Below are positions 1 to 6,000 of a stretch of DNA of 64,000 nucleotides, one piece after another. Made by a program: the position numbers. Numbering within the stretch: the stretch's first letter is position 1; each line of letters begins with the position of its first letter. This DNA is from Escherichia coli. GTDB taxonomy: Bacteria; Pseudomonadota; Gammaproteobacteria; Enterobacterales; Enterobacteriaceae. The stretch lies in the NCBI RefSeq assembly GCF_003334385.1, contig NZ_QOWN01000003.1, one strand, 5' to 3'.

Positions 1-3000
1 AGTTGGCATCGCCGTTGTCAGCGATATCCGCGATATTGCCGCAAGGGACAATGACCGCATCGACCGTCAGCGAAGGTGCACCGGCAAAGGTAGCGGCTAT
101 AGGCAACACCGTACCGTCATCCGCAGTCACTTCACCCATTCGGGAGTAGAGCAGTTTGGCATGAACGCCTTTGGCCTTCAGCGCCTTGAGAATGGCCAGA
201 AGGTCTGCCGATCTCACTTCATCATTAAGTAAAATCGCTACCACGCGACCTTTCACATCACCGTCAGGAATGGCGTACAAACTTAAGGATGGATCCTTTT
301 TCAGACCGTTGACGTCCGGAGGTGGGGTGATATTCAGCTGGTCGTCAGTCAGTTCGATACCGAGATTTTTCGCCACCGCCTGGGCCAGAGTGAGATCAAT
401 ATGCGCCAGCTGGTCAACAACGCGCTCACGAATATACGGACGAACGACTTTGCTTAACTCAAAACTGAAACCATCGACAATATGGCGCTGCTCAAATGGC
501 GTCTGACTTAGCCAGAACAGACGCGGATGGGAATAATATTCGCCAAACGATGGGCTGCGCTCGCGAACTTTATTGCCTTCCACGCGCTCCTGGTATGATT
601 CAAAACCGCCGCGTTTCGGCCCCGGCGGTGTTTCGCGCGGCCAGTTATCGTTAATCGAGTTCGGTTCGTAATTCGCCGGGTTAGTGTCGATCCCCATGCG
701 ATGCATGCCGTCACGCTGGAAATTATGGTAAGGGCAGGTCGGACGGTTAATCGGAATCTCATGGAAATTCGGCCCACCAAGACGACTGATTTGTGTATCG
801 GTATAGGAGAACAAACGTCCCTGCAACAGCGGATCGTTGGTGAAGTCCAGTCCCGGCACGATATGCCCAGGATGGAAAGCCGCCTGTTCGTTTTCAGCAA
901 AGAAGTTATCCGGGTTGCGATTGAGCACCATTTTGCCGACACGCTGAACGGGCACCAGTTCTTCCGGGATAAGTTTGGTTGGATCGAGAAGATCGAAGTC
1001 GAACTTGAATTCATCTTCTTCAGGAATCAACTGGAAGCCCAGTTCGTATTCCGGAAAATCGCCTGCTTCAATGGCTTCCCACAACTCGCGGCGGTGGAAG
1101 TCCGGGTCACGTCCGGTGAGTTTTTGTGCTTCATCCCAAACGAGTGAGGCTTTACCTGCCAGTGGTTTCCAGTGGAAACGTACAAACGTTGCCTTCCCTT
1201 CGGCATTAATCAGGCGGAAGGTGTGAATACCGAAGCCTTCCATGGTGCGGTAACTGCGGGGGATGCCGCGATCCGACATCGCCCACATCACGTTGTGCAG
1301 AGTTTCAGGTTGCAGAGAAACATAATCCCAGAAAGTATCGTGGGCACTTTGCCCTTGTGGAATTGCCCAGTGCGGTTCTGGTTTTACCGCATGAACAAAA
1401 TCGGGGAATTTATGCGCATCCTGGATAAAGAAGATTGGCGTGTTATTGCCAACGAGGTCAAAAATACCCTCTTCGGTATAGAACTTGGTGGCAAAGCCAC
1501 GGATATCACGCACGGTATCAGCAGAGCCAGCACCACCCTGAACGGTAGAGAAACGTACAAATACTGGGGTGATTTTGTTCGGATCTGAGAGGAAATCCGC
1601 TTTGGTAATATCGCTTAAGCTTTTATATGGCTGGAAATAACCGTGAGCGGCTGATCCGCGTGCATGAACAATACGTTCCGGAATGCGCTCATGGTCAAAG
1701 TGGGTGATTTTCTCGCGCAGAATAAAATCTTCCAGCAGCGTTGGACCACGGCTACCGGCACGCAGTGAGTTTTGATCGTCGGCGATGCGCACGCCCTGAT
1801 TAGTGGTCAGCGCATAATTTTCACTGCCTTTGCGTACGTCTTCCAGAGAATTAAGTTTTTCGTTACGCGTATCAGGGGCTTTCAGGCTCCCTGGGGCGGT
1901 AGGTTGTGCACCTGGCGGTGTTGGTTCAGCCGCTGGACGATGAGAGCCGTCCTCAGGTGCCAGTGAGTCCATCCCCGGTTTCGCTTCGCTGGAATCGTGT
2001 AGTGGTGACTGGTGCTGATGTGGGTTCTTTTCGTTATGTTGCGACATTGAACTCGTCTCCTTAATTTATTACTGAAAGGGCCGCTGTTTTGGTCAAAAAA
2101 CTCTCTAACTATAGACCACCAGCCAGATCCCGCTTCGGAGACTATTCTGGAAACGGTGTTATGAAATACACGCAAAGCGGGACGTACAGGGGCTAAATCG
2201 GCTAAACTACAGTTTTTCTGATTTTTAATATGCGTTTAGTGAAGCCAGTAATGAAGAAACCGCTCCGCCAGCAAAACCGCCAGATTATTAGCTATGTCCC
2301 ACGCACGGAACCCGCGCCGCCAGAACATGCGATAAAGATGGATTCGTTTCGTGATGTCTGGATGCTGCGTGGCAAATATGTTGCGTTTGTACTGATGGGA
2401 GAGTCATTTCTGCGCTCACCGGCGTTTACTGTGCCTGAATCTGCCCAACGTTGGGCAAATCAGATCCGCCAGGAAGGGGAAGTGACTGAGTAAGGATTAC
2501 ATACCTCCCGGTTTTGCCGGGAGTTACATGACCTGAAATTCTGTATTTCGTTGCTACATTCATTCAAACCACCTGTAACAAAAAGCTGCCTTTGACGATC
2601 TATTGCTATAAATAAGTGATCTTTTTTCTTTAATTGTTTATTTATTTTAAAATGGTTAAGTTTTGCTAATCATGATGAGCTATTTTTGATAGTTCATCCT
2701 GTGGCGTCGCTCTTAAACTTATATTGTAAATGACTTAGATTTAAATGAGATAATAATTTTGTTAACAATATGAGGCGGGAGATGTTTTCTACAAACTTAA
2801 TACAGAGTAATTATGGTGATTTAAATATTAAAAGCCTGGCTTTCGACTCTTTTAAAGAAAGGCTGCAGTCTACTATGACAGCACTCACTTTCTTTATATC
2901 AACGGGTCAATGTGACTGCGATGAAATAGCAGAATCAAACTTTAATTATATGATTGCCTATATGTCTAACATTAACTATGATGCCTCAAAGCCAGGAGCG

Positions 3001-6000
3001 CCAGCACTTAGTTTTGATACATATCTGCAGGACAATGTTAAATATAGAGTAATAATTAATAATCTTTATGGTAGTGAAATTCGGATAAGAGGTATAAATA
3101 AAGATTTTATTGGAATGGATGTCACTTCTGTATTTCGCCCAGAAAAAATGACCAATTTGATCAGTATAAAAAACAGGTTGGTTATTCACTATTTAAGGAC
3201 TATATACTATGAACAAAATTATATACATCCTGTCGGGAGCATTTTTGCTGCGATTCAAAAAAATGAGAGTCTCCTAAAGTTTCCTTCGATAATATCAATG
3301 CTTAATATCAATCTTCTTTTTAATCCACTAAATCTTCCGGGAATGGGAAGTGGTGTGCTTGAAGATATTATGAGTATTCCAGATAGTTCACTTAGAAAAC
3401 GTCTCGGGTATGAGGTTTTAAGCTTCTCGCTACAGGCACATTCATTGAGCCAGGAATGTATTGATAAGTTGGACATTTTTTTCGCTGACGATCTGTTTAA
3501 ATATGAGTCAGTATGCATCGCCGCGATGGAACATTTAAAAAGTAAGGCAACGGCCCCTATACAAAACGGACCGTTGCCAGCATAAGAATTAATGGTGTGC
3601 CAGTTCGGCGTCGTCTTCGCTATCCAGAATGGCTTTATCGGTTTGCTTCAGCCACTGGCTGGTCAGCGTGCCAGCTGTCATCGAGCCACTAACGTTTAAC
3701 GCCGTACGGCCCATGTCGATAAGCGGTTCAACGGAGATTAACAGCGCCACCAGGGTTACTGGCAGGCCCATCGCAGGCAGTACAATCAGTGCGGCGAAAG
3801 TTGCACCACCACCGACACCGGCAACGCCTGCGGAACTAACGGTAACAATACCGACCAGCGTCGCAATCCACATCGGGTCCAGCGGGTTAATGCCAACCGT
3901 AGGCGCAACCATCACCGCCAGCATTGCCGGATACAAACCGGCGCAGCCGTTCTGACCAATGGTTGCACCGAAAGAGGCGGCGAAACTGGCGATGGATTCA
4001 GGAACGCCCAGACGACGCGTTTGTGCTTCCACATTCAGTGGGATAGACGCAGCACTGGAACGGCTGGTAAAGGCAAACGTCAGCACAGGCCATACCTTAC
4101 GGAAGTACTTCAGCGGACTCACGCCATTAATGCCCAGCAGAATGCCATGCACTGCAAACATAATCAGCAGACCGAGGTAGGACGCGATAACGAAACTTCC
4201 CAGTTTGATGATGTCTTGCAAGTTAGAACCTGCAACCACTTTGGTCATTAGAGCCAGAACGCCGTAAGGGGTCAACTGCATGACCAGGCGAACCAGTTTC
4301 ATCACCCAGCTTTGTAGGGTATCGATAGCGGCTAAGACGCGTTCACCTTTCGGCGCATCATCCTTCAGCAGTTTCAATGCAGCTACGCCGAGGAATGCGG
4401 CAAAAATTACCACGCTGATAATTGACGTCGGATTGGCTCCGGTAAGATCGGCAAACGGGTTTTTCGGGATAAAGGACAAGACCAGCTGCGGAACGCTCAG
4501 ATCAGAGACTTTACCAACATAGTTACTTTCAATGGCGTTCAGACGTGCAGTTTCTGCACCACCCTGAACCAGACCTTCAGCCGTCAAACCAAACAGGTTG
4601 GTGACCAGCACACCGACCAGCGCCGCAATCAGCGTGGTAAACAAAAGCGTACCGATGGTCAGAAAACTGATTTTGCCTAACTGAGATGCGTTATGCAGAC
4701 GGGCAACCGCGCTCAGAATAGAGGCGAAGACTAACGGCATAACGATCATTTGCAGCAGTTGAACATAGCCGTTACCAACGATGTTAAACCACTGTACAGA
4801 ATCTTTAAGTACCTGGCTGTCAGAACCATAAATGGTATGCAGGGCAAGGCCAAAAACCACACCCATCACCAGACCCACCAGCACTTTTTTCGCCAGACTC
4901 CACTGTTTATGGCGGGTCTGAGCCAGCGCAAACAGCAGTACAACGAACACCACGATGTTCGCAATTAATGGAAAGTTCATCCCCGTTCTCCTGATCTTAT
5001 TATTTCTATCACTGCGTAGCAGTCATAGTGTTGGCGCAAGATTAACAGAACTGTGAGCTGGCTCTTATATTCAAATGGAATTGCTTATTCCAGAAAGGTG
5101 ATTTTTGCCTTTTTAGTATTCAACCTGATGCTTAATAAGCCGATGAAACTGGATCTGCAAGGTATTGATCATTTGCGATGACCAACGAACAGCGCTGTTC
5201 TCGGGTAATGAATGGGGCATCCATACCGACCAGACAAATAATGCCATGCAGATAAAACGTTCCAGTTGGTTGCCCTTTTGGGGAACCAGGATAGGCAAGC
5301 GGAAACGCCAGCGGCATGGCCAGAGCAGGGGAACACCGGCGGGTGTCAGCATATCGGCAAGTATGTGGCTCAAATAACCCAGCACCATTCCTTGTAGCGC
5401 ATCAGCCGGAATGAACCAGCCTTCCGGAACCTTAAGGTAAAAGGTTGCCAGCAGCGCAAATACCGCCAGCAGACTGTGGGTAAAACCACGATGCCCAAAA
5501 GCGCGGGCGATCGGTTTTGATATCCATTTTAATCGCTGCCCAAGAAACGACTTTGGGTGATCGATGTCCGGTAACAAACACGTCAGGATTGCGGAAGGGA
5601 CAATATGCCACCAGTCACCCTGTGCCAGCACGGGCGTCAGCTCGGCATTTTTGGCAAATACCGCACAAGCAATAGAAAAGAGAAGGTGACCTTCCGCCGT
5701 CATGATAAAACTCACTAAACTGTCGATACGTACAGTATAGGATTTTTATACAGTGCACGGAAGTGGTGACGGTGTAACTCTTTCTCTTAAATTGACGATT
5801 AATCCGTCAGTTGAATGCAATTTCAGATAAAGAACCAGGGGCAGCGAGATCACTGCCCCTGGTCATTAACCGAGAAGGTCTTTTGCGGTGAGTTCTGTCA
5901 GCGATGAGAGTTTGACGTCTGCTAATACAAAACGTGGATCATTTTGCGCTTCTGGCGCAGGAACGACGATGGAACGCATGCGGGCTGCTTTAGAGGCGAT

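Follow-up and report, generated by a model that had tools for sequence, protein, structure and literature searches.

The DNA considered here is a 64,000-nucleotide stretch of an Escherichia coli genome (assembly GCF_003334385.1, contig NZ_QOWN01000003.1; hereafter the window), the start of which corresponds to the katE-cedA-ydjO-tcyP region of E. coli K-12, reversed relative to the K-12 map. The locus raises the question of how ydjO, an AT-rich gene without recognised relatives outside its genus, came to lie between core genes and why it is so often found broken. The explanation that, taken as a whole, is probably correct is that ydjO is an old, single-gene, AT-rich foreign insert, which is coated by H-NS, weakly selected and repeatedly inactivated. 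According to this proposal, an AT-rich foreign segment of ~1.05 kb with a single gene would have replaced a short bidirectional cedA-tcyP terminator in an early Escherichia lineage, the segment encoding a putatively soluble 30-kDa protein without detectable relatives beyond the genus. The 250 bp 5' of ydjO, and probably the AT-rich body in its entirety, would be coated by H-NS, which would hold down transcription from a sigma-70 promoter (2730-2757) as well as from further promoter-like sites. Low, and probably conditional, expression would leave real but weak selection on YdjO, and such weak selection would allow fast protein evolution, retention of AT-rich DNA and recurrent inactivation by homopolymer changes, nonsense changes, insertion sequences (ISs) and deletion; the ydjO-free allele, which has the ancestral arrangement, persists in about a fifth of E. 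coli. A causal link from silencing to fast evolution is suggested by this scheme.

The element in question (2494-3585, 1092 bp) comprises the 288-bp cedA-ydjO spacer, close to the roughly 290 bp given in a first-pass annotation of the window, and the ydjO coding sequence. In a G+C scan over the 64 kb, with 1092-bp segments and a 10-bp step, the element has a G+C content of 34.4%, compared with 49.1% for the whole window; this is 3.4 standard deviations under the mean, 0.13% of the segments are equally low and the minimum of all segments (34.2%) starts at 2501. The flanking genes katE, cedA and tcyP have G+C contents of 52.2%, 51.5% and 52.4%, respectively, so the AT-richness of ydjO and its upstream region relative to these neighbours, noticed by eye in the first-pass annotation, is confirmed. 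The spacer beyond the putative cedA terminator (2530-2781) is 30.2% G+C and the ydjO coding sequence 35.1%. The AT-rich island extends from ~2530 to ~3540 and is bounded on both sides by G+C-rich hairpins: the element opens with ~35 bp of putative cedA terminator, and the last 45 bp of ydjO, which hold that of tcyP, are 51% G+C. The several A/T tracts noted upstream are also present, with seven runs of at least four A or four T in 236 bp (2546-2781) compared with a window mean of 2.7 (top 3.7% of windows), and with 17 nt at 2637 that include neither G nor C.

The codon use of ydjO, which the first-pass annotation had proposed should be compared, is similarly aberrant. Its G+C content at third codon positions (GC3), 0.32, is the lowest among 44 gene proxies (others 0.53 +/- 0.065), and rare codons make up 12.6% of the gene compared with a mean of 6.0%. 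The codon-usage distance of ydjO from the pooled window genes (0.50) is the second highest, the highest being that of a spurious open reading frame (ORF) antisense to katE; ydjO is thus more deviant than any other real gene in the window.

Loci that lack ydjO indicate how it arrived. The cedA loci of 54 species-representative genomes (6 Escherichia, 48 from other genera) were taken, and tcyP and any YdjO-like coding capacity were located in each. In 47 of the 48 non-Escherichia loci, cedA and tcyP adjoin each other in convergent orientation, ~50-350 bp apart; these 47 include loci of Citrobacter, Salmonella, Enterobacter, Kluyvera, Leclercia, Klebsiella and Atlantibacter. The exception is Siccibacter, with 908 bp between the two genes. 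Most of the empty spacers are centred on one bidirectional A-run/hairpin/T-run terminator (AAAAA-hairpin-TTTTT). A tblastn search of the 48 loci (E <= 10) found no YdjO-like protein, the single match, of 27 residues in Kluyvera (E 5.3), being at chance level. An empty spacer of 46-50 bp is also present in E. whittamii, Escherichia sp. E1V33, SCPM-O-B-8794 and E69 (both labelled E. coli), Ecol_867 and CFT073. Since cedA and tcyP lie close together around a common terminator both in other genera and in several Escherichia lineages, ydjO is an insertion into an ancestral empty site, as had been proposed from its position between core genes. In ydjO-carrying alleles the entire ancestral spacer and the last ~20 nt of cedA have been replaced, such that the C terminus of CedA reads ...QEGEVTE, compared with ...QENEVEE in empty-site alleles; the ending QEGEV[T/A]E is common to ydjO-carrying E. 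coli, Escherichia sp. MOD1-EC7003 and E. albertii.

Both arrangements coexist within E. coli. In a survey of 5426 complete E. coli genomes, the 1092-bp ydjO region used as a query matched in 4301 (4240 at >=80% of the query length), and the empty site, queried as 291 bp, was contiguous in exactly 1125, CFT073 among them. Because 4301 and 1125 make up the whole collection, the locus is a clean two-allele dimorphism (79/21). Extrapolating from CFT073, which is the archetype of phylogroup B2, the empty class may correspond to that phylogroup. A survey of this type had been proposed in the first-pass annotation, which regarded ydjO as a small horizontally acquired gene; its presence is indeed patchy and not universal, but it is not confined to E. 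coli, an ortholog being present in E. albertii. A scan of species-representative genomes with two YdjO peptide patterns only gave no match, one possible reason being that E. coli is represented there by a genome with the empty site. In E. coli HH97 (L001 5050-5165), ~115 bp of C-rich low-complexity sequence occupies the place of ydjO between the cedA terminator and tcyP; this may be either a misassembly or the scar of an unusual deletion.

The E. albertii gene bears on the age of the insertion. In E. albertii NBRC 107761 a YdjO-like frame lies 3' of cedA and runs off the contig end (39% identity over 114 residues, tblastn). In strain TW07627 the gene is interrupted by a 768-bp IS1 with a 9-bp target duplication, removal of which restores an ORF of 257 codons; its product shares 33% identity with YdjO over the 241 residues aligned by BLASTP (E 7e-36), i.e. 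over nearly the whole protein. A profile search found the intact 257-residue protein (P0067, P0070 and others) in many E. albertii strains, together with truncated forms. The homology is visible at the protein level only, since blastn of the E. albertii region against all the complete E. coli genomes gave no match. The two species have in common the cedA 3' junction, the terminator hairpin in the 3' end of the gene and a 21-nt upstream block, because of which a single insertion is favoured that preceded, or roughly coincided with, the divergence of E. coli from E. albertii. The acquisition of ydjO is thus old, rather than recent. As a side observation, in two E. albertii loci (L067, L070) katE is absent between chbG and cedA, and cedA directly follows chbG.

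The divergence of YdjO since that split is striking. Its amino-acid identity between E. coli and E. albertii is 33-35%, compared with 93-97% for the neighbouring proteins, and the corresponding non-synonymous divergence (dN) is 0.67 for ydjO, 0.030 for cedA, 0.014 for tcyP and 0.015 for ydjM, i.e. YdjO is evolving 20-45 times faster than its neighbours. The base composition has not moved with the protein: ydjO has G+C contents of 35.1% (E. coli) and 34.2% (E. albertii), with no shift toward the genome average. That 34-35% G+C has been held in both species despite saturated divergence hints that the AT-richness is actively maintained, rather than being a mere leftover of recent transfer.

Repeated inactivation is the other characteristic of the gene. 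Among 14 alleles chosen across the identity range, seven are annotated as pseudogenes, five of these with the same stop at codon 119. Frameshifts, due to 1- or 2-base changes in A6-A8 or T7 runs, occur at nucleotides 361, 387, 475 and 695 of the coding sequence (window 3142, 3168, 3256 and 3476), the ydjO copy of O157:H7 strain 17B6-2 being altered at nucleotide 695; ATCC 8739 has a truncating stop at codon 261. IS1 lies inside ydjO in two of the 29 full-length E. coli matches listed in a spread sample, as well as in E. albertii, and insertions of IS10 and other ISs in ydjO have been published (PMC10044804, PMC3486847). Escherichia sp. MOD1-EC7003 retains a 197-bp remnant, ydjO having been lost by deletion between two copies of the direct repeat TGACGATCT(A/G)TT (family D6), which in the window lie at 2593-2604 and 3486-3497 (+ strand).

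Evidence on the expression of ydjO comes from published genome-wide data. The 320-bp ydjO/cedA spacer (1811053_320) is one of the promoter islands in Table 1 of PMC3661553, with H-NS present in the Kahramanoglou and Oshima chromatin immunoprecipitation (ChIP) sets; the same source associates the island with genes predicted to be foreign both by Nakamura and by Lawrence. PMC3946193 gives an H-NS mark at this spacer and a site for the RpoD holoenzyme from genomic SELEX (systematic evolution of ligands by exponential enrichment), with the promoter ATGACT-16-AATAAT; these hexamers, which were also found by a consensus scan, are located at window 2730-2757 (+ strand), within the AT-rich region 2530-2781 that corresponds to the published island. 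A SELEX peak for the RpoS holoenzyme at ydjO is reported in PMC5493296. The SELEX sites reflect binding of RNA polymerase in vitro. The reported H-NS occupancy suggests that ydjO is silenced by H-NS. In the element the H-NS high-affinity motif TCGATAAATT, allowing <=2 mismatches, has three sites (2.7 compared with 1.6 per kb), which is no clear enrichment.

Several observations weigh against the proposal of an old, H-NS-coated foreign insert. The Grainger ChIP set is without H-NS at ydjO/cedA, so that two of the three sets brought together in PMC3661553 report occupancy, and no report of de-repression of ydjO in an hns mutant was found in the literature. Some of the homopolymer frameshifts may be sequencing errors instead of true pseudogenes. 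Neither a donor nor a mobility gene, target-site duplication or terminal repeat marking the edges of the insertion was found, and the locus has no flanking direct or inverted repeats, transposase or integrase of the type expected for mobile-element cargo; horizontal transfer, and with it the probable foreign origin of ydjO, is therefore argued from base composition and the empty ancestral site. The distribution is scattered, with ydjO present in E. albertii and most E. coli and absent from E. whittamii, E1V33, the two E. coli-labelled representatives and CFT073-type E. coli, a pattern that needs several precise reversions or whole-allele exchange by homologous recombination. Finally, the synonymous divergence (dS) of ydjO from E. 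albertii is ~1.8 (saturated), compared with 0.56-0.74 for the flanks, and within E. coli the dS of ydjO is about twice that of the flanks; this could reflect either a higher mutation rate or alleles that are older than the species.

The raised dS and the patchy presence across Escherichia species are also what would be expected if E. coli and E. albertii had independently taken up diverged versions of the cassette, or if alleles predating the species had recombined via the conserved flanks, rather than there having been a single acquisition followed by fast vertical divergence. A mosaic allele (P0006, P0084), found in some draft E. coli and Escherichia sp. genomes, points in the same direction. 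It has a gapless 600-bp patch (window 2700-3300; L006 4900-5520), spanning the promoter and the first 170 codons of ydjO, which is 69-83% identical per 100-bp block (dS ~0.8-0.9, dN/dS ~0.2) and is set in flanks that are 95-100% identical; at >=90% identity, none of the 5426 complete genomes has this allele. Old, divergent ydjO lineages therefore recombine into E. coli. However, every lineage with ydjO has the same junction at the 3' end of cedA, the same terminator hairpin at the 3' end of ydjO and the same 21-nt block, pointing to one insertion, and later recombination between lineages, which probably occurred, fits with a single old insertion too. Overall, multiple uptake or recombining pre-species alleles in place of a single acquisition is unlikely.

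The 21-nt block just mentioned (GATGAGCTATTTTTGATAGTT, 2674-2694) is unique in the window and forms the centre of a near-perfect 31-nt palindrome (CATGATGAGCTAT-TTTTG-ATAGTTCATCCTG, 2671-2701, + strand). It is identical in 21 loci, six of them from E. albertii (all those compared), with no variation among the K-12-type alleles retrieved from E. coli, and is the sole upstream sequence conserved between E. coli and E. albertii, the surrounding DNA being no longer alignable. In both species the palindrome lies ~58-60 nt 5' of the -10 hexamer. As RNA, the palindrome of each of the four allele types is predicted to fold into a hairpin of 13-14 bp (-10 to -19 kcal/mol; z -2.9 to -6.5). In the mosaic allele a compensatory change has turned one G-C pair into A-U, and E. 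albertii has two changes from G-C to G.U and one mismatch, the four sequence types being too few for a statistical test of covariation. Because no U-run follows it, the palindrome is not an intrinsic terminator; a search of 2200-3800 against Rfam gave one chance, sub-threshold match only. It may be that the palindrome is a functional element, i.e. an operator or RNA hairpin, which frees ydjO from H-NS under a specific condition, and that ydjO is a conditionally expressed, fast-evolving gene, possibly engaged in conflict with phages or with hosts, instead of silent ballast; at present we consider this to be distinctly unlikely.

The assignment of ydjO as an orphan gene of unknown function in the first-pass annotation is supported by the homolog searches. 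YdjO is a protein of 267 residues (30.2 kDa, pI 5.6), without Trp or a hydrophobic segment of membrane-spanning length, such that the product would be soluble. No match to it was found in Pfam (even at E 10), NCBIfam, PDB sequences or phage genomes, PADLOC gave 0 families at E <= 1, and the one match in PHROGs was sub-threshold (E 0.37) and not meaningful. No homolog outside Escherichia was found in 5.8 billion protein clusters or in 1.84 billion representatives, the latter searched exhaustively by HMMER; all matches are from E. coli/Shigella, Escherichia sp. or E. albertii, so the distribution of YdjO is restricted to the genus. An apparent distant homolog (P0034, 26% identity, phmmer E 1.5e-36) is a database artefact, its contig (L012, Logan SRR33321306; equivalent to window 2179-4220) having A and G swapped throughout, with 588 A>G, 450 G>A and ~ten other differences; such a contig is a trap for orphan-gene searches. 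The three 'plasmid' matches are mislabelled chromosomes. Kinship with YahL or with YjfZ (DUF2686), which are similar in length, was rejected (pairwise BLASTP E 0.22 or worse; no Pfam match at E 10). A correlation of ydjO single-nucleotide polymorphisms with hydrogen production in the long-term evolution experiment (PMC10997342) involves two isolates only and is not taken as functional evidence; literature mentions of 'b1730' are unrelated reference labels only.

Structure prediction had also been proposed in the first-pass annotation. The best AlphaFold model (mean predicted local distance difference test score, pLDDT, 65.9; predicted template modelling score, pTM, 0.62; four of the five models have a pLDDT below 47, leaving one that was usable) has a possible helix at the N terminus, an antiparallel sheet of five strands and a C-terminal half that is helical, but it differs from the models of YdjO in the AlphaFold database (TM 0.29), so that no confident fold was obtained. 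With this model, the best Foldseek match outside the family is an E. coli 'Type III effector protein' (E 5.8e-3), followed by YhiS. Secretion signals are typically rich in Ser, Thr, Asn and Ile, as is the N terminus of YdjO (MFSTNLIQSNYGDLNIKS). These properties would be accounted for if YdjO were a decayed or cryptic substrate of type III secretion, e.g. of the E. coli type III secretion system 2 (ETT2) or the system encoded by the locus of enterocyte effacement (LEE), and such a role would account for the genus restriction, the AT-richness and the binding of H-NS. However, the confidence of the model is moderate, it does not superimpose on the database models, and hhalign of the YdjO alignment against YhiS gave no match; further, AT-rich genes are expected to encode proteins rich in Asn, Ile and Ser whatever their function. 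The effector resemblance may be a lead, but is not a result, and a secretion substrate is a highly improbable identity for YdjO.

The arrangement of the locus bears on a further possibility. The gene order, katE(-), cedA(+), ydjO(+), tcyP(-), agrees with the RefSeq annotation of the identical K-12 stretch. To the left of cedA, katE (- strand) extends up to 2046; cedA (2230-2493, +) is the conserved left flank, and tcyP (ydjN; 3589-4980, -) the conserved right flank, being convergent with ydjO (2782-3585, +; 267 codons, with GAGG 6 nt 5' of the ATG) with 3 nt between the stop codons. A hairpin at 2502-2526 (+; TACCTCCCGG / CCGGGAGTTA; inverted repeat I16), present only in the ydjO-carrying allele, is the candidate cedA terminator. 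The tcyP terminator-like hairpin (3546-3578; GGCAACGG..CCGTTGCC, followed by TTACTTTTT on the - strand; inverted repeat I15) lies within the final 40 nt of ydjO, where the same DNA encodes the YdjO C terminus ...KATAPIQNGPLP; E. albertii retains this hairpin, along with the S-[KR]-A-T-A motif encoded by it.

The cassette thus supplies one hairpin per neighbour in place of the common terminator, and its AT-rich body might mainly serve tcyP and cedA, terminating or insulating their convergent transcripts over an extended stretch, with coding being secondary. Table 1 of PMC4145685 lists ydjO, ydjN (tcyP) and the CysB regulon among genes down >=2-fold in serum, which fits with antisense tcyP read-through into ydjO; since the tcyP terminator is inside ydjO, the ydjO signal may in part be such read-through. 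However, empty-site genomes suffice with a 46-bp terminator, and an insulator role leaves the conservation of the frame and the purifying selection on amino acids unexplained; there is very little likelihood that this is the principal role of the segment.

With respect to coding, the frame is open over 267 codons, compared with 11-33 stops in each of the other five frames. At the composition of ydjO, stops are expected at 7.4% per codon, i.e. one per 14 codons, giving a probability of ~1e-9 for an open frame by chance, and none of 20000 shuffled ydjO sequences stayed open. The frames of 267 (E. coli) and 257 (E. albertii) codons are both open despite 51% nucleotide identity. Among intact E. 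coli alleles the dN/dS of ydjO is 0.13-0.27, compared with 0.00-0.07 for tcyP and ydjM, and cedA has no non-synonymous differences among the alleles compared within E. coli. Thus, ydjO is a real, dispensable and weakly constrained gene under purifying selection. That it is instead a non-functional chance ORF, or arose de novo from local non-coding DNA, as the lack of homologs and domains, the pseudogene annotation of about half of the sampled alleles and its dispensability in a fifth of E. coli might suggest, is scarcely credible given the improbability of the frame, its maintenance in E. albertii, the dN/dS values and an ancestral spacer of only ~50-110 bp, from which 1 kb could not have arisen.

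As an old foreign insert, ydjO is an ordinary example of a well-known kind; the interpretation in the first-pass annotation is largely right, and most of it has already been published. In its AT-richness, A/T tracts and promoter-like sites, ydjO resembles both the K-12 promoter islands to which H-NS binds (Panyukov and Ozoline 2013, PMC3661553) and the K-12 genes under xenogeneic silencing (the H-NS paradigm of Navarre and Lucchini); ydjO/cedA is listed among the islands by name, and is also alike in its insertion between core genes and restricted taxonomic range. Unlike such genes, its de-repression in an hns mutant is not documented in the literature found. It also differs from xenogeneically silenced genes in being a single gene without mobility genes or a larger island, and in that the insert is old, being common to E. 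albertii, yet has not drifted in composition to that of the genome. Added here to the published picture are the empty site as the ancestral state, the division of E. coli into two allele classes (79/21), an extremely diverged ortholog in E. albertii, the combination of purifying selection with inactivation and the conserved palindrome.

The same gene is among the conserved signature proteins YahL, YdjO and YjfZ (PMC11057252); for YdjO, no homolog beyond the genus was found here either. That study claimed ydjO to be exclusive to E. coli/Shigella and reported 93% detection in the field, the lowest of the three markers. The claimed exclusivity is qualified by the 257-residue E. albertii ortholog (33-35% identity), by the ~21% of complete E. 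coli genomes without ydjO and by the many others with pseudogenes; the detection rate fits with the occurrence of empty-site genomes and pseudogenes.

The genes yhiS and arpB are AT-rich and IS-prone like ydjO, but in K-12 are present only as pseudogenes, yhiS being interrupted by IS5. PMC3661553 also has the arsC/yhiS spacer among its H-NS-bound promoter islands; no such entry was found for arpB. YhiS is a weak Foldseek match to YdjO, yet has no sequence or profile similarity to it; the CFT073 annotation places arpB in the ShET2/EspL2 family, whereas YdjO is in no family.

Other AT-rich stretches are present in the window. Two adjoining AT-rich ORFs (GC3 0.37 and 0.34) lie beside thrS at 10921-12820; from the K-12 map we take these to be the arpB pseudogene. 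At the same map position in CFT073, between thrS and yniD, the annotated gene is a pseudogene of a ShET2/EspL2-family type III effector, and 10921-12820 forms a second AT-rich island in the window, probably of foreign origin. Further stretches of <36% G+C (300-bp segments) occur at 28391-28850, 36931-37400, 58441-58840 and 60421-61470, the lowest value being 26% near 60891-61470.

For genome annotation, ydjO is a textbook case of an old AT-rich foreign insert that has remained uncorrected in composition, is reported to be H-NS-bound, evolves fast and is often broken. Its proposed use as a marker of E. coli/Shigella in quantitative PCR is affected, in that about a fifth of complete genomes, including that of the uropathogen CFT073, are without ydjO, many further genomes have an IS-disrupted copy and E. 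albertii has a distant ortholog. The empty, occupied, mosaic, nonsense, IS and deletion states of the locus, together with an ortholog of 33-35% identity, constitute a natural series for studying the evolution of a silenced gene.

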